DNA of 32,260 bases from Chthoniobacterales bacterium (GTDB lineage Bacteria > Verrucomicrobiota > Verrucomicrobiia > Chthoniobacterales > JACTMZ01), in the NCBI GenBank assembly GCA_044355525.1, contig JBIKXZ010000003.1:1-32260 (forward strand). The letters run 5' to 3'. The position numbers and the translations under genes are program-made. Positions within the stretch are counted from its first letter, which is position 1. Each line of letters opens with the position of its first letter. This document shows positions 9,179 through 29,928 of this stretch, piece after piece. Under the pieces are notes generated by a model. That model saw only the letters and a list, made by a program, of their open reading frames with translations, had not been told where the DNA came from and searched no databases.

Positions 9179-10429
9179 CTACCTATGTTCTGCTATCTTG
9201 CGTTCGTAGTCTAGGACATCTGTAAGCCACGCAGTTCCAATGGGAACATCTTTTCTTCGGCAGAACTCGTCCCACACCGCGCCCCAGGGGAGGGACTTGG
9301 CTTCTTCGAGCAAGGCCAGTCGTGTGGTGAGGTTTCCGGCGGTTTCGGCTTCACGCAGTTGACTCGACGGTTCGAGCAGGGCGAGGAGGAGGGCTTTTTG
9401 GGTGGCGCGGATGCCGATGACCCAAGCGGCCACGCGGTTGATGCTGGCATCGAAATAGTCGAGGCCGATGCTGGTTCGGCCGAGGAAATCGCCGCGGACC
9501 AATTCCTCCATCACTGCGCGCGTCGGGTCGTCGAGGATGACGACATGGTCGCTGTCCCAGCGCACGCCGCGGCTGACGTGAAGCAGTAAGCGTGGCACGA
9601 AGAGCAGCACGGAGGAAATTTTGTCGGCGAGGGTTTCCGTGGGATGAAAATGGCCGGCGTCGAGACAGACAGCTTTCTGCCGCGAGACGGCATAGCCGAG
9701 GTAAAATTCGTGCGAGCCTGCCGTGTAGCTTTCCGAGCCGATGCCGAAAAGTTTGCACTCCACGGCGTCGATTTCGTCCTTCTCCGGGAGCTTTTCGGCG
9801 AAGATGGCGTCGAGCGATTCTATGAGGCGCTGGCGAGGAGCGACGCGGTCGATCGGCAGGTCTTTGTAGCCGTCGGGAATCCAGACGTTCGTCACGCACG
9901 TCGAGCCGAGGGCGCGCCCGATATCCGCACCGATCTTGCGGCAGCGTTTGGCGTGTTCGATCCAGAAATCGCGGATGCCCTTGTCGCGATGGGCGAGGGT
10001 GAAGCCGTCGGCGGCTTTCGGGTGGGCGAAGCAGGTCGGATTGAAGTCCATACCGATGCCGAGTGACTTGGCCCAATCGATCCACCTCTGGAAATGCTTC
10101 GTCTCGATCTGGTCGCGGTCGACTTTCTGACCGCCGGTCTCGAGGTAGAAGGCGTGAAGGTTGAGGCGGTGCTTGCCGGGAACGAGCGAGAAAACTTTCT
10201 CGAGGTCCGCGCGTAGCTCGTTGGGTGTGCGGGCGCGGCCCGGATAGTTGCCGGTCACGGCGAGTCCGCCACCCGGATCGCCGGCGGAGGTGGATTCGAA
10301 TCCGCCGACGTCATCGCCTTGCCAGCAGTGGACGGAGATCGGTGTGCGGCCGAGGGTTTCGAGGGCCTTTTCGGTATCGACGCCGAGAGTGGCGTAGGCC
10401 TCGCGGGCCGCCTGGTAGGGGGAGGGCAT
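9179..10429 (-). CDS. rhaA: L-rhamnose isomerase
   Basis: Start at ATG 10429 behind AGGAG; [77 protein letters not shown]. Confidence 0.96.
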
Positions 10430-10437
10430 AAGTTCTC

Positions 10438-10851
10438 CTACTGCTCGCCGTTGTGGCCGTCGAGCCAATGGGCGATTTCGTCGAGAGTTTTCCTCCCGCA
10501 ATTCCGCTCGTCGCGGAGGATGTCCAAAACGTTCGCGTTGCGCGCTTGCTCGCGGTTCTTGATCCCGTGGCGTCCGAGGGCGTTGACGGCGCGCGCGGAA
10601 AGGTTGCTCAGTTCCACGGCAGTGCCGAGAGATTTGAGTGCGCGGCGGTGGCGCGAGAGCATCAGTGAAACCGCTTGCGGGGTGACGCTGAATTGCCGGC
10701 CTATCTCGCGATAGGAGTAGCCAAGGCCGCGAAGCATGGCGATTTCGCCGACGCGCTGTGGAACAGTCTCGAGATTGCGGGGCTTGAAGGTCGCCGAGGC
10801 GGCAACCGGGTTGGATTGCTGGTGCATGGTGGTTTCGGAGGTGGTTTCCAT
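10438..10851 (-). CDS. Small protein: sigma-region-4-like HTH fused to RNA polymerase alpha C-terminal domain
   Basis: 137 aa from ATG 10851 (TGATG overlap with upstream stop). [26 protein letters not shown] (HTH), then [14 protein letters not shown]...[15 protein letters not shown] (alpha-CTD-like). Fills the gap exactly. Confidence 0.8.
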
Positions 10852-13079
10852 CAACGGAGGAAGGCTTCGACCAAACCTCCGTCGATGGTGACGATTTGGC
10901 CGGTGGTTTTGGAAAGACGGTCGGACAGGAGGAGGAAGTATGCCTCTGCCTGGTCGGCCGGGGTGATCGGCGCCTTGGTCAGCGTGCGATCGGCGTAGAA
11001 TTGCGCGAGTTTGGAAGTGAGCGATTCGTCGCTTTCGTCCTCGGAGTAAGCGATGCCGTATTTGGCCAGTGAGCCAATGACACGGTCGCGGGGGAACATG
11101 GCGCTTCCCTGCACGACGGTGGCGGGCGCCACCCCGTTGACGCGGACCAGTGGCGAGAGTTCGATGGCCAGTTCGCGCACGAGATGGTTGGCTGCCGCCT
11201 TGGAGGTGTCGTAGGCGAGACTGCCTTTCTTGGCCACGGCGGCGTTGGCGCTGGTCGTGAGAACAACCGAGCCGCGCAATCCCTGCTCGCGGAAAATTGT
11301 CGCCGCCTCGTCGGCCACGAGATAGCTGCCAGTGACATTGATCGCGTAGGTCAGCGCCCATTTGTCGTCCGGGATGTGTCCGGTTGTGTCGCTCGCGACA
11401 AAGATGCCGGCGGTCACCGCCACGGAGTCGAATCCGCCATAGGCAAGGATGACGCGGTCGAACATCGCGCGGATGCTCTCGCGTTTGGTGATATCCACTT
11501 GCGCGGCGATAGCCGGGCCGCAGCCGGAGATGCCCGTGCCGGCCACGCCGATGCCGAGACCGGTCTTGGCGAGGATTTCGTCAGCCGTTTTCTGCGCGGC
11601 CTCGAGATTCAAGTCGGCGCAGACAATCTGCGCGCCTTCTCGGACAAGGCGGAGCGCGGTTTCGCGTCCGATGCCGCTGCCGGCGCCGATAACAATGACC
11701 ACGCGGCCGGCCATTTCCTTTTCGGGTGGCATGCGTCTGAGCTTCGCTTCTTCGAGTGCCCAGTATTCGATGTCGAAGGCTTCCTGCTGCGGCAGGGAGA
11801 TGTATCCGCCCAGCGCCTCGGCGCCACGCATCACCTCCACCGCGCAGTTGTAGAACTCGGCCGTGACGCGCGATTCGGATTTGTCTTTGCCGAAAGCGAC
11901 CATGCCGAGCCCCGGGATGAGCACGACGGTCGGGTTCGGATCGCGCATGGCGGGTGAATCGGGACGCTTGCAGGCCTCGTAATATTTGGCGTAGTCCGCA
12001 CGATAGGCGTCGAGGCCGGCGGAGAGCTTCTCTTTGAGTTGGCCGACGAAGGAGTCCAGCTGCGCGTCGTCCAATCCGGCCGGCACCGTATCGAGGGCGA
12101 CGTAGAGAGGTTTGATCTTCGTGCGGAGGAAGTGGTCCGGGCAACTGGTGCCGAGTTCGGCCAAGCGCGGGGCGTCCTGCGAATCGACAAAGCGGAGAAT
12201 TTTCTCGTCGTCCTGCACGGTGGCGATGAAACGTCGCGATTTGCTGACTTGTCCGCGCAACCACGGAAGCAGGCGGCACCAAATTTTGGCGCGTGTTTCG
12301 GCCGGAAGCGCCGCGTGTCGCTGTCCGCCGAAAATTTTCCCTTCGCCGCCGCTTGCCGCGATACGCTCCTCGATGGCGGTGGCAGCGCGGTCGATGAGTT
12401 GCAGCGATCGATCGTAGCATTCGCGGCCTGTCTTGCCCCAGTTGATCAGCCCGTGCTGGCCCATGATGAAGCCGACGGCTCGGGGGTAATCCCTGCAGGC
12501 TTTTTGCATGGCGAGTCCGAGTTCGAAGCCCGGGCGCATCCAAGGAAGGTGCACGATCTCATCGCCGTAAATTTCGCGCGTCGCCTCCTTGCTGCGTGCG
12601 CAGGCGGCCACGGCAATCGCGGCATTGGGATGCGTGTGATCGACGTGCGGGTGGGGGATAAAACTGTGCAACGGAGTGTCGATCGAAGACGGGCGCGGAT
12701 TGAGATTGAATGTGCAGTGCGCATACATGCCGACCATCTCGTCCTCGGCGGGGGACTTGAGGCCTTTGTCCGCCCGCGCCCCGTAAACTTTCTGCAAGCC
12801 GGTCAATTTGTCCTGATAGAGCGAGGAAAAGTTTTCCCGCTTCGAGGTGCGCAGGTCGCCGCCCGAGCCTTTGACCCACAGCACTTCGACTTTCTCGCCG
12901 GTGACCGGGTCGGTCTCGGTGATCTTGGCCGACGTATTGCCTCCGCCCGTATTGGTGATGCGCTGGTCGCGGCCAAGGCAGTTCGAGCGGTAGACGAGTT
13001 CCTCAACGCCGCTCAGAGCATTGGCTTTCGAGTCGTCCCAATGGGCGGTTACGTGCTTGAGTGTGTCGGGAGATGCCAT
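10851..13079 (-). CDS. rhaD: Bifunctional rhamnulose-1-phosphate aldolase / short-chain dehydrogenase (RhaEW type)
   Basis: [55 protein letters not shown], then SDR GAGSGIG and YDTSKAA. Confidence 0.93.
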
Positions 13080-13080
13080 G

Positions 13081-13180
13081 AATTGTGGGAAAATGTCGGG
13101 ATAACACCAAATTTGGCAAGAAGAAACTTCTTAAGTTGACTAAATCGCGGCGAAAACACACATTTTCCCAATCTTTACTC
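13081..13180. promoter_or_regulatory. Divergent promoter region with paired 11-bp operator-like boxes
   Basis: TGGGAAAATGT (13086-13096) is the exact reverse complement of ACATTTTCCCA (13160-13170); TTGACT-17-CACATT on + and TTGCCA-16-GACATT on -. Confidence 0.6.
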
Positions 13181-13951
13181 ATGCTTGCCATTGATCGCCA
13201 CCGCTGGTTGCTGGACGAACTGAACGAACGCGGCAGCCTCCGCACCTCGGAAATCGCCGAGCGGGCTGGCGTGGCGGAGGAGACGATTCGGCGGGACTTC
13301 GAAAAGCTCGAAAGCGAAGGCATGTTGCGCCGCACGCACGGTGGAGCGGTTCGCCTTGAGGCCGATCGGCGCGAATTTCCGGCCGGCGAGCGCGCTTTGC
13401 AGCACGCTATCGAAAAGCAAGCCATCGCCCGCGCTGCGGCCCGTCGTCTCCGCGCGGGCCAGACGGTGTATTTCGACGCGAGCACGACAGTTCTCGAGTT
13501 GGTCCGCGTCATGCCCGATATCCCCCTGACCGTGGTGACCAACAGCATCGAGAACGCCTTGGCCCTTGCGGAAAAGAGCGATGTTTCCTGCGTCCTCCTC
13601 GGTGGCACCATGCACCCGAGCTCGCTTTCCTGCACGGGGTGGGCCGCGGAAAAATCCCTGGAGATCTACCATCTCGATGCGGCCTTCCTCTCCTGCCGCG
13701 GCATCGACGCCGACCGCGGCTTCAGCGATGCAACCGAGGGGCAAGCCCAACTCAAGCACTCCGTGGTAGAGCGCGCCGGGCAGGTTTTCCTCCTTGCCGA
13801 CACCTCTAAGTCCGGGGTGACCTCAAGCTACTTCTTTGCGGGGGGAGCGGATATCGATGTCTGGATCGCGGAAACACCGCCGCCTGTGCAGCTGGCCTCC
13901 GCCTTGGTATCGCAGGGCCTTCGCATCGAGTGCGCGAAAGGAGACGATTGA
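13181..13951 (+). CDS. DeoR/GlpR family transcriptional regulator
   Basis: Start at ATG 13181; VAEETIRRDFEKLE..RTHGGA, EKQAIA, FDASTT, VVTNS, LLADTSK. Confidence 0.93.
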   Translation: MLAIDRHRWLLDELNERGSLRTSEIAERAGVAEETIRRDFEKLESEGMLRRTHGGAVRLEADRREFPAGERALQHAIEKQAIARAAARRLRAGQTVYFDASTTVLELVRVMPDIPLTVVTNSIENALALAEKSDVSCVLLGGTMHPSSLSCTGWAAEKSLEIYHLDAAFLSCRGIDADRGFSDATEGQAQLKHSVVERAGQVFLLADTSKSGVTSSYFFAGGADIDVWIAETPPPVQLASALVSQGLRIECAKGDD

Positions 13952-22044: not shown

Positions 22045-25000
22045 ATGAATCTCCCCACGCCCAAATTGGCGCCCGGTCTTCGGGCGTCTCTTATTGTTGT
22101 TACCCTCTCGCTGCTCGTTTGCCCCGTCGCTCGCGCGGCCACCATATCCTTCGTCGGTGTGGAGCCCGGAACATCTGGCAGCGGATTTGCGGCGCAGAAC
22201 TGGTCGAATGCAGGGGTGGCCAAGGACTACGACCTGAGCGGCAACGTTTATGGCACCGCCGGCTATTACCAGATACGCCCCACGCTTAATTCCTCCCCAA
22301 GCAATGTCCCAGGTGAAGCCGCCTCCGCGGGCAATAATCTGGGTATTACGGCGACGAATAATCCAACATTGTATTCCGCACCGGTCTTCTTGAGTTCAAT
22401 CACCGGCGCTGCGGGTAGTTACGTCAACTACGGGGGTTATCCAATCTTCCGCGGCCCGGACGGTTCTACGCTTTACCGTCAGGGTTCGCTCTCGGTTTCG
22501 GTTGGCAATGGCCCTTTCAACACTCCCTCCGGTGCCAACACCGGGTATTTCGGCGAGGCCTTCACTTTCACCATGGCCTCGGGTATCGGCGCGAACTTCC
22601 GCATCGCTGTTGCCGTGGATACCGCGGCCGAAGGCACTTACGCGCCTGATTATGTCAGCATCTACAATGCGGGAACGGGGAGCGTTTATTCCAGCCTTCT
22701 CGCGCGCAACGGCACACCGGATATGACAGTATTTGATGTTACTGCGACCGCGGGTGAAAGCTTCACGGCGGCGATGTGGCAGTTGGCGGGAACGCAAAGC
22801 GTGTCGCCCTATGGTCTCATCACCTTTGATGTCTCGCGCTACAATTTGGATGTCGCTTCGGGATCTCAGACCAACTCTTCGGCCCTCGGTGGATCACCGG
22901 CGGCTTTGCTCAAGACGGGTGCCGGGACGATGGTGCTGACCGGAGCAAGCACCTTCACCGGCGCGACCACCATCAGTAACGGTGCGGTCCAGTTGGGCGG
23001 AAGCGGAACTTTGGCCGGCGGCACCTACGGCGGTGCGGTATCGTTGGTAACCAACTCGTCGTCGCTCGCCATCGCAACCTCGGCAAACCAAACTTTGTCC
23101 GGTGCAATCAGCGGCAGCGGCTCCTTGGCCAAGTCGGCCAATGGCACGCTGACCTTGAGTGGAAGCAACAGCTACACGGGAGCAACCGTGGTCAGCGGTG
23201 GCACGCTTAGACTGGACGGATCGGGCGCGCTTTCCGGAAGCACCACCCTGCAAGTCGACTCTGGTGCCACTTTTTCGACGACCGGAACTGTGCTCGCCAG
23301 CAACAATGTCACCGTTGCGGGACTGACGGGGGCGGGAACGGTGACGGGCGCTGCTGGGACGTTGACGGTGAACAAAGCTGCCGGTAGCGACACTTTTTCC
23401 GGCACTATCAGCGGTGGCACTGCGTTGGCCAAATCGGCCGCCGGCACATTGACCTTGAGCGGCAGCAACAGCTACAGCGGGGGAACCACGATCTCCGGTG
23501 GCCGTGTTATCACTACCTCGTCCGACGCTTTGGGCGATGCTTCCGCAGTGATCACGGTCAGCGGGGGAGCATATCTCGATGTTCGTACCAATACGACGCG
23601 CACTGGCACGGTCACTTTCGATGGGGGATACCTCGCGACCAGTGCTGGGGCGCCGGCGTCGCTTGTGAACAACGGCGGCAGTTTTGTCCTTACCAACGCC
23701 GCGGAAATCGTTGCTGAGTTGGGCGGCACAGCTGGTCTGACTTCGGGCGGCGCTGGGACGTCGGTGCTATGGCGGTCGAATAGCTACACGGGGGCGACTG
23801 TCGTCAACTCGGGCACGCTGACTTTGAACGGAGCCGGTGCTCTCTCCACAAACACCTCTTTGCAAGTGGCGTCGGGCGCTACGTTTTCGATGACCGGAAA
23901 TTTCGCCCAGAGCAACAATGTTACCGTAGCGGGATTGACCGGGGCTGGAACAGTCACGGGCGCCGCAGGAACATTGACCGTCACCAAACCCTCCGGCAAC
24001 ACGGACCTTTTCACAGGGACTATTCAGGGCGGAATAGGCCTCACCAAGAGTGGCGCTGGGCAGTTTTCGATTTCCGGCAGCAATAGCTACACTGGTACAA
24101 CAACGGTCAGCGGTGGTGTGGTAAACCTCGCGAGTGGCAGTGGGTTTGGCAGCACAGCTGGCGGAACGATTGTGGCAGACGGTGCCGCCATTCGCATCCA
24201 GGGAACCAACGCTGGAGGCAGTGGTATCACTGTCGGCAACGAGGCGCTGAACATCCGCGGACTCGGGGTGAGCGGCGGTGGCGGCGCTTTGCGAAGCGCG
24301 AGCGGCACGAACACCTGGCAAGGCAAGGTCACCTTGGATGATAATGCACGCATCGGCGCGGCCACAAATAACCTGCTCACTTTAGATGTCGCTTCGGGCA
24401 ACGCAATCGAAGCAGCCAATTTCAACCTTAGCACCGAAGGCGCCGGTCATATCCGCGTCAACGACGCGATCAGTCTTGGCACGGGAGGACTGACCAAAGC
24501 TGGATCTGGCTCGTTGATTCTTGCCGCAAGCAACAGCTACAGCGGTTCCACCGACATCCAAGCAGGCCGGTTGACTCTCTCCGGCAATGGACGGTTAGGG
24601 TCCGGAGCGGTAACCATCTCCAACGCGAACAACGGTGCGCTGGAGTTTGCGGTAAGCGGAACGAATGTGGTTGGTAACAATATCTCCGGCGCCGGCGCTT
24701 TGATCTCGAGTTCAGGTGAAACGCGCTTCACCGGCGCGGTGACCAGCACGGGCGGGCTCACGAATTCGAGCAGCATAGTGCGTATAGGAAACGGAGGCAC
24801 GACAGGATCCTATTCCGGCAACACTGTTTTGAGCGATGCGGCTGCCCAGTTGGTCTTCGATCGCAGTGATGCATACATCCACAGCGGGACGATCTCCGGA
24901 AGCGGCAGCGTGACTAAAGTCGGGGCGGGGACGTCTACCCTTGCGGGTTTGAATACTTACAATGGCGGAACATTCCTTAACGGTGGCTGGCTGGTGGCCG

Positions 25001-26286
25001 GGCACACCAATGCGTTCGGCACTGGCTCTATCACCGTGGGTTCGGGCACCACGCTCAACTTGACCAATTTCAACATTGCCAACCTTGTCATAAATAATGG
25101 CGGCACCATCCTCTCTACCGGAACGCTCGATGACGTCATCGCTACGAACGGCACGACCGACATCGGCGGCAACAACAGCACGATCGAGGAGATTGGCGGA
25201 ACGGCTGTCGTCAACGTGACCGGCAGCAGCGTCGTGGTTTCCAACACAACGGGCGGCACGCTCAATGCCGATGGCTCCAGTGTGCAGGTTGCCTCGGTCA
25301 GCGGCGGCACGGTGAACCTCGGTGGCAGCAGCGCGGTGGTCACCGCAGCCAGCGGGGGCACGGTCAATGCCAATGCTTCCGGTGCAACCCTCGGCACGGT
25401 CAGCGGAACGGCGGCGGTCAATGTTGCCGGGGCCAATGCCCGCGTAGCCACCCTCTCTGGCGGTTCGGTGGCGGCCAATGCCTCCGGCCTTGTCGTCACC
25501 AACTTCAACGGCGGCAACATTGCGGTCTCCAACGGCGCCACCGTCGGCCTGCGCGGCGGTTCGTCCTCGGGAGTCATCTCCGGCCAAGGTGGCATCGCCA
25601 AGCAGGGAGCAGACACGCTGACACTTTCCGGTGTCAACACGCTCAGCGGCGCGACAACCGTCGAGCAAGGCAAGCTGATCGTGAACGGATCGCTCAACAG
25701 CAGCGCCGTCACCGTGCAGAGCGGAGCAACTCTGGGTGGTGGCGGGTCCATCGGAACCCTGACCTTGAACGGTATCCTGGCGCCCGGAAATTCTGCCGGC
25801 ACCACTACCGCTGGTGCGACGACCTGGAACCAAGGTGGCAGCTACAATTGGGAAATATTCAACTTGGCCGGGCCTGCCGGCACCGGATGGGACTGGCTCA
25901 ACGTCACCAACGGGTCGCTCAACCTGAGTGGAATCACCGCTCCGGGCGGATTCACCATCAACTTGATCACACTTACGACCGACAATTCTACGCCCGGCCC
26001 GCTCAATGAATTCAACGCAGCCACTAACTACTCAAACTGGTTGATTGCCAGCGCTCCGACCATCAGTGGCTTCAGCGCCAATCTCTTCACGCTGAACACC
26101 AGTTCCTTTGTCGGCGCGACCGGCATCTTCGCCATCGAGCAACGCGGTGGGGATCTCTTCCTGACCTACACCGGCGCCGCAGCCGCTGTTCCGGAGCCCG
26201 GAACTTGGGCGGCTGGAGGTCTCTTGCTGGCGCTTGCCGCGCTGGCGCGGCGGCGGGCCAAGGAGCGCGCGGAGAAGGCGGCCTGA
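22045..26286 (+). CDS. Secreted protein: unrecognised N-terminal domain + autotransporter-associated beta-strand repeats + PEP-CTERM
   Basis: Signal peptide ending ARA-; many LxKxGxGTLTLSGxNSYxGxTxxxxG repeats; VPEP-TM-RRR tail; no beta-barrel seen. Confidence 0.9.
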   Translation: MNLPTPKLAPGLRASLIVVTLSLLVCPVARAATISFVGVEPGTSGSGFAAQNWSNAGVAKDYDLSGNVYGTAGYYQIRPTLNSSPSNVPGEAASAGNNLGITATNNPTLYSAPVFLSSITGAAGSYVNYGGYPIFRGPDGSTLYRQGSLSVSVGNGPFNTPSGANTGYFGEAFTFTMASGIGANFRIAVAVDTAAEGTYAPDYVSIYNAGTGSVYSSLLARNGTPDMTVFDVTATAGESFTAAMWQLAGTQSVSPYGLITFDVSRYNLDVASGSQTNSSALGGSPAALLKTGAGTMVLTGASTFTGATTISNGAVQLGGSGTLAGGTYGGAVSLVTNSSSLAIATSANQTLSGAISGSGSLAKSANGTLTLSGSNSYTGATVVSGGTLRLDGSGALSGSTTLQVDSGATFSTTGTVLASNNVTVAGLTGAGTVTGAAGTLTVNKAAGSDTFSGTISGGTALAKSAAGTLTLSGSNSYSGGTTISGGRVITTSSDALGDASAVITVSGGAYLDVRTNTTRTGTVTFDGGYLATSAGAPASLVNNGGSFVLTNAAEIVAELGGTAGLTSGGAGTSVLWRSNSYTGATVVNSGTLTLNGAGALSTNTSLQVASGATFSMTGNFAQSNNVTVAGLTGAGTVTGAAGTLTVTKPSGNTDLFTGTIQGGIGLTKSGAGQFSISGSNSYTGTTTVSGGVVNLASGSGFGSTAGGTIVADGAAIRIQGTNAGGSGITVGNEALNIRGLGVSGGGGALRSASGTNTWQGKVTLDDNARIGAATNNLLTLDVASGNAIEAANFNLSTEGAGHIRVNDAISLGTGGLTKAGSGSLILAASNSYSGSTDIQAGRLTLSGNGRLGSGAVTISNANNGALEFAVSGTNVVGNNISGAGALISSSGETRFTGAVTSTGGLTNSSSIVRIGNGGTTGSYSGNTVLSDAAAQLVFDRSDAYIHSGTISGSGSVTKVGAGTSTLAGLNTYNGGTFLNGGWLVAGHTNAFGTGSITVGSGTTLNLTNFNIANLVINNGGTILSTGTLDDVIATNGTTDIGGNNSTIEEIGGTAVVNVTGSSVVVSNTTGGTLNADGSSVQVASVSGGTVNLGGSSAVVTAASGGTVNANASGATLGTVSGTAAVNVAGANARVATLSGGSVAANASGLVVTNFNGGNIAVSNGATVGLRGGSSSGVISGQGGIAKQGADTLTLSGVNTLSGATTVEQGKLIVNGSLNSSAVTVQSGATLGGGGSIGTLTLNGILAPGNSAGTTTAGATTWNQGGSYNWEIFNLAGPAGTGWDWLNVTNGSLNLSGITAPGGFTINLITLTTDNSTPGPLNEFNAATNYSNWLIASAPTISGFSANLFTLNTSSFVGATGIFAIEQRGGDLFLTYTGAAAAVPEPGTWAAGGLLLALAALARRRAKERAEKAA

Positions 26287-26349
26287 TGGCATTTTTGCGC
26301 GCGTTGTTGGCACAGGGCTCAAGGAGATATTGCCTTTGAAGTGTAACAT
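26287..26349 (+). promoter_or_regulatory. Putative activator-dependent promoter, copy 2
   Basis: TGGCAT at 26287 and TGGCAC-AGGGC-TCAAGG at 26308 (21-bp period); TAACAT at 26344. Confidence 0.6.
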
Positions 26350-26373
26350 TCCTGTCGCATCCGGATTTCTACC

Positions 26374-29300
26374 ATGAACAGATCCTCTATCTCCCGCAAA
26401 TTTCGCGCGTCTCATCTAGCTGCATTGCTGCTGCCGGTTTGCCTCACAGCTCCCGGTCTCGGAGCAACGATTTCGTTTGTCGGCATCGAGGTCGGCACGG
26501 ATACAAACAGCTACGCTGTGCAAAATTGGTCGAATCTGGGCGTCTCGAAATTATATGACTTGGGTGGGTCTGAAGTTTATGGAACCTCGGGTTACTACCA
26601 GATTCGTCCCACGTTGAGTTCCGCCCCGAGCAACGTCTCCGAAGCTGTCTCCTCGGGCAATGATCTTGGGATCACCGCAACGAACAACCCGACCTTATTT
26701 TCAGCACCTGTATTTTTGAGTTCACTCACTGGTGGTGCTGGGACCTTGGTCAACTTTGGAGGCTATCAGACTTTTCGCGGTCCGGATGGTTCAACGCTCT
26801 ACCGTCAAGGTGGCCTCTCGGTCTCGGTCAACAACGGGCCGTTCAACACGCCGTCGGGCAACAACAACGGCTACTTCGGCTCAGCTTTTTCTCTCACCAT
26901 GGCCTCGAATATGGGCGCCGATTTTCGCCTTGGGATCGCGGTCGACACCGTGGGGAGCGCCCAGTTTGCGCCGGACTATGTCAGCCTTTTCAATTCCGGA
27001 ACCGGCAGCGTCTATTCCACGCAGTTGTCGCGCGACGGGAACGCGGACATGGCTTTTTTCGACATCACCGCGTCCGCGGGCGAAAGTTTCAGCGCCGCTT
27101 TGTGGCAGTTGGCCGGCACGCAGAGTGTCGCTGTATTCAGTCTGATCACCTTCGATGTTTCGCGCTACAAGCTCGATGTTGCCTCCGGCCTGCAAACCAA
27201 CTCTGCGGTTCTCAGCGGTGCACCGGCCGCTTTGGTCAAGACGGGCGCGGGCACGACGGTCCTGACGGGTGTCAGCACGTATCAGGGTACCACGACGATC
27301 AGCAATGGCGCGGTTGAAGTGGGCGGTTCGGGCCGGCTGGCCAGTGGTAGTTATACCGGTGCGGTTTCGCTCGCCACCAACACGGCCTCACTCCGCATCG
27401 CGACCACGGCCGCTCAGACTTTGTCCGGCGCAATCAGCGGCAGCGGTTCTCTATCCAAGTCCGCCAACGGCACTCTGACTTTGAGCGGCAGCAACAGCTA
27501 CAGCGGGGGCACGACCATCTCGGGTGGGCGTCTCATCGCGACGTCCGCAAATGCTCTGGGCGATGCCGCTGGTGCGGTAACGGTCAGCGGTGGTGCTTAC
27601 CTCGACGTGCGCACGAATATCACGCGCACCGGGACCGTTACCTTCGACGGGGGCTTTCTGGCCACCGCCGATGGCGCACCGGCGTCGCTGATCAACAATG
27701 GCGGCGGTTTCGTGCTGACCAACGCCGCGGAAATTGTCGCGCAATTGGGCGGCACGGCCGGCTTGACCTCCGGAGGCACTGGCACCAACGCCTTGTGGCG
27801 TTCCAATAGCTACACGGGTGCGACGGTAGTGAGCGGAGGCACCCTGACTTTGAGAGGTGCGGGTGCGCTCTCGACGAATACCACTTTGCAGGTGGCATCT
27901 GGCGCGACCTTCTCCATGACCGGAGATTTCGCCCCGAGCAACAACGTCACGGTCGCGGGCTTGTCCGGAGCAGGGACGGTGACCGGCGGTGCTGGTGCGC
28001 TGACCATCGACAAGGCCTCCGGTAGCGACACGTTTTCCGGACAAGTCACCGGAGGGGTTGGCCTGACCAAGGCAGGACTGGGGACCTTGGTCTTGTCGGG
28101 CTCGAATTCCTATTCGGGCGGAACCCTCATTTCGGCGGGTGCGCTCGAGCTGAACGGCGCACTGCTCAGCGGCGGCATCACCAACAATGCCAGCCTTGTC
28201 ATCCATGGCGATCTGGTCAACGTGGTCAGCGGCACTGGTTCCCTGACCAAGACCGGCAGCGCCAATACATCCATCTGGGTATCCAACACTTACTCCGGCG
28301 CCACAGTCATCGAGGGTGGTTCGGTGAAGCTGGATGGCGCGGGGATGATCTCGAGTAATAGCGCGCTGCGGGTGGACTCGGGGGCGTCATTTTCCATTAC
28401 GGGATTTTTCACAGCCAGCAACAACGTCACGGTGGCGGGCCTGACCGGGGCAGGTATCGTGCAAGGAGCGGCGGGCACGTTGACCGTGAGCAAACCTACC
28501 AACACCTCGGATGTCTTCACCGGCAGCATCAATGGAGGCATCGCCTTGACGCTCGCCGGCTCCACCCAGCTGTGGCTCGCCGGCAGCAACAGCTACACGG
28601 GTGTGACCACAGTCGGAGGGGCGGATAATATTCTGAATCTTGTTCACGCCAACGGCTTGGGCAGCACGGTGGCTGGCACAACGGTGGGCAACGGTTCCGT
28701 GTTGCGCATTCAGGGGACCAACAATGGCGGGAGCGGCATTACCGTAGGTGCGGAGGCTTTGACCATCATCGGGCAAGGCCGTGGCGGCAACGGCGGGGCT
28801 CTGCGCAGCGTCTCCGGAACAAACACCTGGCAAGGGAAAGTCACTTTGTCTGGCGACGCGCGGATCGGGTCCGCCGGCGGCAGCTTTCTGACGTTGGATG
28901 TCGCATCCGGCAACGCGGTCGAGGCGGCGAACTTCAATCTCACCACCGAAGGTGCAGGCCACCTGCAGGTCAACGATGCGATCAGCTTGGGCACGGGAAG
29001 TCTGACCAAACTTGGCACGGGCTCCCTCATTTTGGCCACGGCTAACAGCTACAGCGGTGGGACGACGCTGAGTGAGGGATTCCTGAGGTTGGACACCGCG
29101 AGCGCGGCGGGCAGCGGCTCGATCACGCAGGTGACAAACAACTCCACGCTGCAGATCAACACCACCGGCACGGTGGCCAATGCTATGAGCATCTTCAATG
29201 TCCGCACCATGCAGACCGTGACGCTGAGTGGCAACAAGACGCTCAATAACGCGACCTACACCGTGGACGCGGGCACGACGACAACGGAGTCCGGCAGTCT

Positions 29301-29928
29301 CAGTGGGGCGGGCGGCATCACCAAGCAGGGGACCGGGACGCTCATCGTCACCGGCAACAACAGCTACACTGGAGCTGTTGCCGTGGACGCGGGAGTGCTC
29401 AACCTCAACAGTTCGGTCGGCGGAGCGGCCGCGACGACCAGTTCGGTCTCCGTGGCCAACGGCGCAACGCTGCTTCTTTCGCAAAGCGACCAGGTGAGCA
29501 ACACGGCGGCGGTCACGCTGTCCGGCGGGACCATCCAGCGCGCCAGCGGGGTAAGCGAGGTCTTTGGCTCCCTCAACCTCACAGCTTCGTCCTTTCTCGA
29601 TTTCAGCGGCGGAACAGCCGGGACGATCGAGTTCAGCGGGATCAGCTACACCCCGAGCGCACTCCTTCTGCTTAACATCGCAAACTTCACGCAGGGCAAC
29701 ACCCTGGTCTTCCAGACAACGAGCAACCTATCGCTTTCGGGTTTCAGCTTCAGCGGCAGCGGCGGTTTCGGCAGTTCCTCCTTCAACGGAACAACCTTCA
29801 CGATCACGGCAATTCCGGAGCCTTCGACCTGGTTGACGGCAACCGGACTGCTCGGCCTTCTTCTCTGGTCGTCACGCAAACGGCTTGCCCTGGTGTCGAG
29901 CGCCACCGGTAAAGGCGACGAATCGTGA
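26374..29928 (+). CDS. Paralogous secreted protein: same N-terminal domain + beta-strand repeats + PEP-CTERM
   Basis: Signal peptide; N-domain highly similar to 22045..26286; passenger-associated repeats; IPEPSTW-TM-RKR tail. Confidence 0.9.
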   Translation: MNRSSISRKFRASHLAALLLPVCLTAPGLGATISFVGIEVGTDTNSYAVQNWSNLGVSKLYDLGGSEVYGTSGYYQIRPTLSSAPSNVSEAVSSGNDLGITATNNPTLFSAPVFLSSLTGGAGTLVNFGGYQTFRGPDGSTLYRQGGLSVSVNNGPFNTPSGNNNGYFGSAFSLTMASNMGADFRLGIAVDTVGSAQFAPDYVSLFNSGTGSVYSTQLSRDGNADMAFFDITASAGESFSAALWQLAGTQSVAVFSLITFDVSRYKLDVASGLQTNSAVLSGAPAALVKTGAGTTVLTGVSTYQGTTTISNGAVEVGGSGRLASGSYTGAVSLATNTASLRIATTAAQTLSGAISGSGSLSKSANGTLTLSGSNSYSGGTTISGGRLIATSANALGDAAGAVTVSGGAYLDVRTNITRTGTVTFDGGFLATADGAPASLINNGGGFVLTNAAEIVAQLGGTAGLTSGGTGTNALWRSNSYTGATVVSGGTLTLRGAGALSTNTTLQVASGATFSMTGDFAPSNNVTVAGLSGAGTVTGGAGALTIDKASGSDTFSGQVTGGVGLTKAGLGTLVLSGSNSYSGGTLISAGALELNGALLSGGITNNASLVIHGDLVNVVSGTGSLTKTGSANTSIWVSNTYSGATVIEGGSVKLDGAGMISSNSALRVDSGASFSITGFFTASNNVTVAGLTGAGIVQGAAGTLTVSKPTNTSDVFTGSINGGIALTLAGSTQLWLAGSNSYTGVTTVGGADNILNLVHANGLGSTVAGTTVGNGSVLRIQGTNNGGSGITVGAEALTIIGQGRGGNGGALRSVSGTNTWQGKVTLSGDARIGSAGGSFLTLDVASGNAVEAANFNLTTEGAGHLQVNDAISLGTGSLTKLGTGSLILATANSYSGGTTLSEGFLRLDTASAAGSGSITQVTNNSTLQINTTGTVANAMSIFNVRTMQTVTLSGNKTLNNATYTVDAGTTTTESGSLSGAGGITKQGTGTLIVTGNNSYTGAVAVDAGVLNLNSSVGGAAATTSSVSVANGATLLLSQSDQVSNTAAVTLSGGTIQRASGVSEVFGSLNLTASSFLDFSGGTAGTIEFSGISYTPSALLLLNIANFTQGNTLVFQTTSNLSLSGFSFSGSGGFGSSSFNGTTFTITAIPEPSTWLTATGLLGLLLWSSRKRLALVSSATGKGDES

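Follow-up and report, generated by a model that had tools for sequence, protein, structure and literature searches.

The C-terminal domain of the alpha subunit of RNA polymerase (RNAP), or alpha-CTD, and region 4 of the sigma factor are the parts of the enzyme that read the upstream half of the promoter, and most activators act on them. The two modules are seen side by side on DNA in the complex of alpha-CTD, sigma region 4 and UP-plus-(-35) DNA (PDB: 3N97), where they belong to separate RNAP subunits. In a stretch of 32,260 nucleotides from a Chthoniobacterales bacterium of the phylum Verrucomicrobiota (contig JBIKXZ010000003.1; hereafter the window), we investigated a small gene of a rhamnose operon whose 137-residue product (P0001) joins counterparts of both modules in a single chain, a helix-turn-helix (HTH) domain coming first and an alpha-CTD-like domain following after a helical linker of 10-15 residues. 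The 3N97 complex itself stands at rank 50 among the Foldseek matches of the predicted structure of this protein.

As parts, the alpha-CTD and the HTH of the region-4/LuxR class are known already, and databases flag the alpha-CTD domain. Compared with genuine alpha-CTDs (PF03118), that of the small protein is 30-35% identical, superposes at 1.6-2.6 Å and keeps the residues contacting the UP element; it differs in the absence of the alpha N-terminal domain (alpha-NTD), in one additional residue between its two hairpins, in an invariant W129 after the second hairpin, and in that the positions which we take to contact activators and sigma are not conserved in the family. The best sequence family for the HTH is sigma-70 region 4.2, including domain 4 of the extracytoplasmic function (ECF) sigma factors, and its fold matches include the -35-DNA-bound structures 1ku7, 2h27 and 6jhe, but the match lies below the region-4 cut-off, covers only positions 19-54 of the model, so that the first region-4 helix is absent, and is not accompanied by region 2. 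The LuxR/GerE-type HTH domains (GerE, NarL, DosR, TraR) share the four-helix layout at a root-mean-square deviation (rmsd) of 2.2-3.0 Å (Z 6.3-6.9), as low as or lower than that for sigma region 4, and likewise belong to small DNA-binding regulators, as is predicted here; however, they carry no helix-hairpin-helix (HhH) domain, and the GerE profile (PF00196) matches only 1 of 62 family members at E<=1e-3. Finally, the described rhamnose regulators are of the AraC type (RhaS/RhaR) or are RhaR proteins of the DeoR and LacI types; the small protein likewise resides in a rha locus, beside a DeoR-type gene, but Pfam finds no AraC, DeoR or LacI domain in it.

A literature search, which left most subscription journals outside its reach, returned no description of a protein or family combining sigma region 4 with an alpha-CTD. 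We rate as new what appears from sequence to be a lineage-restricted transcription-factor architecture, assembled from the promoter-reading modules of RNAP and expanded in sugar loci. Such a family would offer a natural test of what these two modules can do off the polymerase, and a first handle on the control of many polysaccharide and sugar loci in abundant, uncultured freshwater Verrucomicrobia.

Domain composition and conservation of the small protein

The small open reading frame (ORF) is a real gene under purifying selection, with dN/dS ratios of 0.12-0.39 in all 36 pairs formed by nine rha-linked orthologues. The first-pass annotation of the window, made by a model from the letters alone, had described it as translationally coupled to an aldolase-short-chain dehydrogenase (aldolase-SDR) gene and ending 8 nt before rhaA. 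Both junctions are confirmed from the letters: the plus-strand string CATCA at 10849-10853 corresponds to TGATG in the coding sense, so that the small gene's ATG and the TGA of the aldolase-SDR gene share one base in an ATGA overlap, and the TAG at 10438-10440 leaves an 8-nt spacer to the rhaA ATG at 10427-10429. The strings LSARAVNAL...RNCGRKT and the HTH string quoted in that annotation are likewise present in the translation. The start could alternatively lie at M9, since many homologues begin at a conserved 'MH' corresponding to residue 9 here, in which case the overlap would become a 24-nt gap.

The assignment of the C-terminal half to the alpha-CTD, also proposed in the first pass together with a profile search as its check, proved well founded. 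The RNA_pol_A_CTD profile (PF03118) matches residues 72-130 with 27.6 bits, above the curated gathering cut-off of 23.8 (E 2.3e-6). A search of PDB sequences with the single protein ranks Bacillus subtilis alpha-CTD chains first (E 1.6e-3), with the segments LSVRSYNCLKRAGI and RNLGRKSLEEV aligned to the small protein, and all 8 matches of the family profile to PDB sequences are RpoA alpha-CTDs (best E 3e-6). Identity to the RpoA of the same genome is 33% over 79 residues (BLASTP). For the N-terminal half, the Sigma70_r4_2 profile (PF08281) matches residues 38-72 with E 3.4e-4, and its 20.6 bits lie under the cut-off of 25.7; the other region-4 profile, PF04545, reaches 14.3 bits against a cut-off of 24.1. 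Across 62 family members at E<=1e-3, PF03118 is found in 55 and Sigma70_r4_2 in 40 (best 6e-8). Sequence and model are thus compatible with an HTH that resembles the region-4/LuxR class, strict Sigma70_r4 membership not being reached by this protein, and the sigma-region-4-like HTH of the first pass agrees with this profile match and with the fold matches described below. None of the genome's own sigma factors is similar to the HTH at E<=0.01, and the ECF sigma factor encoded in the window shows no similarity to it.

Neither an alpha-NTD (Pfam, NCBIfam) nor a Sigma70_r2 domain (Pfam) was matched in the 137-residue protein; TIGR02937 reaches 18.5 bits where its cut-off is 42.9, and NCBIfam matches to rpoA and ECF-sigma models are all sub-threshold, the rpoA equivalog models falling far under their cut-offs. 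The small protein is therefore not a sigma factor, because region 2 is absent, and not an RNAP subunit in the normal sense, because its alpha-CTD-like domain is unattached to an alpha-NTD. The absence of the latter had been noted in the first pass, and the actual rpoA of the genome sits on a different contig (G000:C82).

An AlphaFold2 model built from the 62-sequence alignment consists of eight helices, of which 32-42, 47-54, 58-67 and 69-80 form the HTH part. Its mean predicted local distance difference test score (pLDDT) is 77, with values of about 74-97 per 10-residue block over residues 31-130 and below 50 for residues 1-27. The predicted template modelling score (pTM) is 0.49, and the relative orientation of the two domains is not confidently predicted. 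Foldseek returned no match to the PDB at E<=0.001 for this model; its best rows are sigma region 4 (3vep, 3vfz, 5fgm, 1ku7) and alpha-CTDs (1z3e_B, 2max), with an rmsd of 1.6 Å over 53 columns for 1z3e_B. In VIA-align comparisons, residues 18-83 gave Z 6-7 against both sigma region 4 and LuxR/GerE domains, while residues 75-134 gave Z 6.2 and 2.6 Å over 58 residues against 1z3e_B, and Z 5.5 and 1.9 Å over 53 residues against residues 258-311 of Escherichia coli RpoA (4mex_A). As VIA-align itself warns, Z values in this range are common among small helical domains, and the fold evidence can therefore back, but not replace, the sequence evidence. A homodimer prediction for two copies of residues 28-134, made with its own alignment, scored 0.02 and neither favours nor disfavours pairing.

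Conservation is concentrated in what would be the two DNA-reading surfaces. Invariant in 62 sequences are L84, S85, R87, L92 and W129. Positions conserved in at least 90% of them are P31, I37, A38, L40-G44, I50, P58, Q59, A60, S62, L65 and R67 in the N-terminal part, and A88, N90, R94, R100, A103, L112, R116-G119, K121, T122, E125 and I126 in the C-terminal part; the signature of 46 loci-derived members starts P.R.R.IA.LRGLGYSFREI and closes L...RNCG.KT..EI..W. In the alignments to B. subtilis alpha-CTDs (HMMER) and to the genome's own RpoA (BLASTP), R87, N90, N117, G119, K121 and E125 fall on identical residues and T122 on S. We take these seven positions to be the DNA-contact positions of the alpha-CTD; the E. 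coli equivalents, presumably R265, N268, N294, G296 and K298, agree with the alignment to 4mex_A, and the retention of these five residues, read by eye in the first pass, holds. Residues 81-83 and about 104-111, which vary across the family, presumably correspond to the 261 and 287 determinants through which the alpha-CTD contacts activators and sigma. The recognition helix of the HTH (P58, Q59, A60, S62, L65, R67) is nearly the same in all paralogues, and to judge from the alignment both putative DNA-reading surfaces are fixed across them. The core is very basic, with a median isoelectric point of 10.8 (46 of 48 members, two long-branch rows dropped) against 6.4 for the CTD segment of the genome's own RpoA. 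The only paralogue-specific part is the first 30 residues, which hold no conserved motif.

A family found in one genus, mostly in sugar-utilisation loci

A word-indexed search recovered 673 homologous clusters of about 130-170 residues (E<=1e-3), many with precomputed PF03118 and with or without PF08281; sources seldom name these proteins, and the names include 'DNA-directed RNA polymerase subunit alpha C-terminal domain-containing protein', from Chthoniobacterales metagenome-assembled genomes (MAGs). When 1.84 billion representatives were searched with a profile, 65 clusters reached E<=1e-30; at E<=1e-10 there were 125, and at E<=1e-3 the number was 1269. Among 200 other genomes across the order, 21 of the 22 belonging to the genus of the window match, at 1-7 places each (matching places, which are not exact copy numbers), and the only matches outside the genus are to the alpha-CTD of RpoA itself (E about 1e-4, in frames of about 340 residues). 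No match at E<=1e-5 was found in 400 other genomes across the phylum. When 185,579 species genomes were scanned with a pattern, 39 loci emerged, 37 of them with strong matches (E<=5e-19). Going by their titles, the strong ones belong to MAGs of Chthoniobacter, Chthoniobacterales or Verrucomicrobia, except for two: a 7.3-kb contig of a 'Pirellulales' MAG (L094), in which the entire block of aldolase gene, small gene and rhaA is about 87% identical to that of the window at the protein level, and a 1.9-kb contig of a 'Luteolibacter' MAG (L124). Both are probably mis-binned rather than instances of transfer. Within the collections searched, the paralogous family is confined to one genus of aquatic (freshwater) Chthoniobacterales. 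A practical corollary concerns PF03118, which matches at several places per genome in this lineage and is used elsewhere as a single-copy marker (e.g. PMC3663571).

The genome of the window, 79% complete, holds a second family copy between a PIN-domain gene and a thymidine phosphorylase gene. It is divided over the ends of contigs C139 (L002/L086) and C54 (L003/L087), and the two contigs abut in the genome, since both ends share its sequence. Relatives in viral or phage sequences were not encountered: none of 27 pattern hits in viral contigs was confirmed, tblastn of P0001 and P0229 against 50,697 phage records gave no match, PADLOC had no match for the family protein, and PHROGs gave weak HTH matches only. 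In the Atlas, phage clusters of Sigma70_r4 and Mor appeared similar (score 0.91), which was not confirmed.

Some metagenomic proteins repeat the modules. Seven of 570-1634 residues (P0202, P0217, P0220, P0223, P0230, P0233, P0234) contain 1-7 alpha-CTD-like stretches, most of them at least three; all except P0202 carry a Sigma70_r4 match, P0233 has in addition three Spo0A_C domains, and RuvC is weakly matched in P0217. Two distant proteins with both domains, P0221 and P0224, are singletons without named relatives. In P0121 (269 residues), the single cluster of its kind, two diverged units of HTH and alpha-CTD stand in tandem in one chain, which hints that two such units may act together.

To describe genomic contexts, 55 regions were annotated with our own rough codon-usage gene caller, which misses some genes; their 242 neighbours fell into 134 groups, a representative of each being scanned with Pfam. 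The settings of the paralogues include: 1) a GH3 gene followed by the family gene, opposite GH5+CBM6 and a two-component system. 2) GH65 and a beta-phosphoglucomutase-like HAD gene followed by the family gene. 3) Giant PATR-repeat genes, then the family gene, then GH36. 4) An AraC gene divergent from the family gene, 2-hydroxyacid dehydrogenase and 6-phosphogluconate dehydrogenase. 5) A LacI gene divergent from the family gene and a dehydrogenase. 6) The family gene followed by galactokinase, glucokinase or GH5. Minority settings are thymidine phosphorylase, a sigma-70 gene, RF3/PPK2 and TrpA, and some copies adjoin UvrD, SMC or insertion sequence (IS) genes.

A sugar-use gene lies at most three called genes away in 42 of 53 copies and is directly adjacent in 30. 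For a control, 20 positions were drawn at random from the window's genome and treated with the same caller (115 neighbours scanned); the strict count is 2 (L142, L144), or 4 if a phosphotransferase EIIA gene and a dTDP-sugar cluster are included. The enrichment is indicative and does not amount to a statistical test, because the sugar labels were set post hoc and the copies are related, and the control positions all come from one genome. This was the neighbourhood survey proposed in the first pass, which knew the protein from the rhamnose locus; the protein is not peculiar to rhamnose, its family members occurring in many different sugar loci and also in a few housekeeping ones. A regulator gene lies within three genes of 26 of the 53 copies, and the upstream gene is divergent in 16, named examples being regulators of the DeoR, AraC or LacI type. 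A quick maximum-likelihood tree (IQ-TREE) of 48 of the 53 members, five truncated ones of under 120 residues being dropped, groups the proteins by neighbourhood (SH-aLRT 82-99 for the GH3, GH65, GH36, AraC and LacI groups), with 21 of 45 inner branches unresolved. Each orthogroup is tied to its own locus, mostly a sugar-utilisation operon.

The association with rhaA was followed by combining the family search with tblastn checks and with a search for the RhaA family across 31 of the genus's genomes. The small gene stands directly upstream of rhaA, on the same strand, in 9 of the 13 rhaA loci whose upstream flank is visible. Two arrangements recur. Type a has the order aldolase-SDR, small gene, rhaA seen in the window, with the ATGA overlap kept in 6 of 6 cases and two further examples of the order. 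In type b, a DeoR gene diverges from an operon in which the small gene comes first, followed by rhaA, phosphotransacylase and microcompartment shell genes. Four more loci have adjoining rha genes and no adjacent rhaA: the neighbour is DeoR in L037 (which stops at the contig end), L042 and L043, and in L033 it is the aldolase-SDR, DeoR being present only as a contig-end fragment. Two loci (L035 on G530:C23, L034 on G506:C162) hold two family copies 7.4 kb apart that flank the rha/lut cluster, the second after a prepilin-type N_methyl gene; at the matching place of the window there is no second copy.

Readings of the function

We give about even chances to the reading that the small protein is an operon-embedded DNA-binding regulator of -35/UP-like promoter DNA. 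Its HTH would take a -35-like element in the major groove and its alpha-CTD-like domain the neighbouring A/T-rich minor groove. Since it is made inside the operon, often from overlapping or closely spaced frames, the amount of protein would follow the transcription of its own operon, and the result would be feedback or feed-forward on sugar-locus promoters. A DNA-binding role is favoured over that of a protein decoy because the DNA-reading surfaces are fixed, the positions corresponding to activator and sigma contacts vary, and the core is very basic. That the protein binds DNA, what kind of site it reads and how it affects regulation are all steps that we infer. The suggestion of the first pass that such a protein occupies UP/-35 DNA as feedback comes close to this reading and is plausible. 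The rha promoter regions are A/T-rich, and in type-b and gene-less loci A-tracts lie just upstream of CTTGC-type words, a layout that is compatible with the idea of a -35/UP-type site and is no proof of it.

Several results weigh against such a regulator. Its HTH stays below the region-4 cut-offs, the mutual orientation of the domains is uncertain, and the fold scores are of a kind common in small helical domains. No binding site for the small protein was found upstream of 26 copies or in the intergenic DNA of the rha loci compared, which were of type a, of type b or without the gene. The repeats considered as its sites (the TGGGAAAATGT pair described below and a GCAAGAA-N7-TTCTTGC-like one) were rejected, since they either recur in loci without the gene or suit a DeoR operator, and a count of 9-mers over 24 context groups gave GC-rich words only, which probably stem from coding sequence overlooked by the rough gene caller. 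The gene is missing from 4 of the 13 rhaA loci (G409, G569, G583:C19, G593:C240), and G409, a 96% complete genome of the same genus, has no family match anywhere; rhamnose use is therefore independent of it. In addition, 11 of the 53 copies occupy non-sugar settings, and the sugar enrichment has the limits given above. Lastly, the near-identical recognition helix fits poorly with a locus-specific classical regulator, arguing against a separate operator for each locus, and leaves unexplained why each locus has its own copy. The copies may all recognise a single kind of site, for which a -35-like word with an A/T tract is the natural guess; otherwise the tail, partners or local action would have to supply their specificity.

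A bolder version, which we regard as unlikely, sees the fusion as a promoter placeholder that would occupy the UP/-35 part of sugar-locus promoters and either block RNAP or hand the site over to it. Its specificity would have to come from action in cis beside its own operon, because the paralogues share their DNA-reading residues. Were it true, promoter-mimicking regulators of this operon-embedded sort would be new, and they would be this lineage's own means of setting the order in which many sugars are used with a small genome.

Less probable still is an RNAP mimic or adaptor working through protein contacts, one that titrates or bridges activators, anti-sigma-type proteins or RNAP (for instance at the beta-flap) with no sequence-specific DNA binding. 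The origin of both domains, which correspond to the RNAP modules usually targeted by activators, is in keeping with it; the best Foldseek rows include sigma region 4 with a negative regulator (3vep) and with WhiB-type factors, and the shared recognition helix would suit one common protein partner. Yet it is the positions of the presumed 261 and 287 determinants that vary and the DNA-contact positions that are nearly invariant, the core isoelectric point of about 10.8 points to nucleic acid, and the region-4 helix missing from the HTH is one which we take to help in holding the beta-flap. The regulator adjoining the operon is moreover of the DeoR type and not an AraC activator. The first-pass idea of a soluble mimic that titrates activators thus finds little support.

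We consider it just as improbable that the core supplies a general affinity for DNA or RNAP while the tail docks on a local partner, a DeoR-, AraC-, LacI- or GntR-type regulator or an enzyme. The protein would then act as co-repressor or co-activator specific to its locus. This would account for a tail that is the sole paralogue-specific part, and would agree with the regulator genes near 26 of the copies and with the divergent DeoR-, AraC- and LacI-type examples among the 16 divergent upstream genes; the tail, however, is predicted to be disordered and has no conserved motif, and 27 of the 53 copies have no regulator nearby.

Very unlikely, finally, is an architectural or nucleoid-associated DNA-binding protein, or a recombination or partition helper, with no specific role for sugar genes: HhH domains bind DNA in many proteins with no sequence preference, the paralogues have invariant DNA-binding determinants, RepB and phage HTH families are weakly matched and some copies lie beside UvrD, SMC and IS genes, but the neighbourhoods of the orthogroups are stable and enriched in sugar genes, the gene is embedded in catabolic operons with overlapping frames, and the searches of viral contigs, phage genomes and PADLOC were empty.

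The rhamnose locus of the window and further observations

Table 1. Features of the small gene, its product and its surroundings in the window
Feature	Position	Strand	Remarks
rhaA, L-rhamnose isomerase	9179..10429	minus	downstream of the small gene; Pfam RhaA, E 4.8e-201
Gene of the HTH + alpha-CTD-like protein (P0001)	10438..10851, stop codon included	minus	137 aa, no internal stops
alpha-CTD-like (HhH)2 domain, residues 77-133	10453..10623	minus	PF03118, PDB profile, fold matches
HTH, sigma-70 region 4 / LuxR class, residues 31-76	10624..10761	minus	resemblance by Pfam, model helices and fold matches
N-terminal tail, residues 1-30	10762..10851	minus	variable between paralogues; predicted disordered; conserved columns set in at P31
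Fusion of class II aldolase and short-chain dehydrogenase (RhaEW type), 742 aa	10851..13079	minus	Pfam Aldolase_II + adh_short; upstream, same operon
Divergent promoter region, operon versus DeoR-type gene	13080..13180	.	bracketed by an 11-nt inverted repeat
DeoR-family regulator (likely RhaR)	13181..13951	plus	Pfam HTH_DeoR + DeoRC

The features of the locus are collected in Table 1. According to Pfam, an FGGY kinase and lutABC-type lactate utilisation genes also lie near the small gene, and a second aldolase, a fucose isomerase and an AraC regulator farther along the window. The name RhaEW for the aldolase/dehydrogenase fusion, and with it the functional assignment of the upstream gene, rests on PMC3870299, which also documents DeoR-family RhaR regulators for rha regulons and places the lactate dehydrogenase genes lldEFG in the RhaR regulons of genomes encoding RhaEW. 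The window matches this pattern, with RhaEW, a DeoR-type RhaR and lactate genes together; in the main text of that paper neither 'Verrucomicrobia' nor 'RNA polymerase' occurs. The form of the locus with RhaEW is that of the window and L033-L037, while L038-L043 have no RhaEW and carry phosphotransacylase and shell genes after rhaA; the coexistence of the two forms in one genus suggests two routes for lactaldehyde.

The divergent promoter region is bracketed by a perfect 11-nt inverted repeat, TGGGAAAATGT, at 13086-13096 (plus) and 13160-13170 (minus), with one arm by each start codon. Allowing one mismatch, it occurs 6 times in the window against 0.34 expected, and it is kept in 4 of the 5 type-a loci compared, having diverged in L036; it is probably the operator of the DeoR-type repressor. 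The GTG listed as the start of the DeoR gene (13085) is probably too far upstream, the first 32 codons being likelier promoter DNA, since type-b orthologues align only from residue 16-33 on and the ATG at 13181 precedes the HTH.

A search for expression found a small share (0.06) of the words in three lake-water runs only. The contigs of these runs belong to relatives that are in most cases 90-95% alike, and they include parts of both rhaA and the aldolase gene; one 387-nt record spans 10473-10871, the RNA label of its run being a guess. Two RNA runs match 10640-10677 only, and they probably reflect paralogues, because the match is limited to the conserved HTH with loose ends on either side. 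The matches in the three runs do not demonstrate transcription of this small gene.

In the orthogroup beside UvrD and thymidine phosphorylase, all four loci (L067, L068, L070 and L087, the last being the second copy of the window's genome) have a TGGCAC-N5-TTGC word 10-20 nt before the start codon. We take this word to be the -24/-12 promoter consensus of sigma-54, and the copy of this orthogroup may be sigma-54 dependent. Beyond the AraC gene of the window, two very large genes of PATR autotransporter-type repeats (1413 and 1184 residues) come at 22045-29928, and genes of this type often adjoin family paralogues too.

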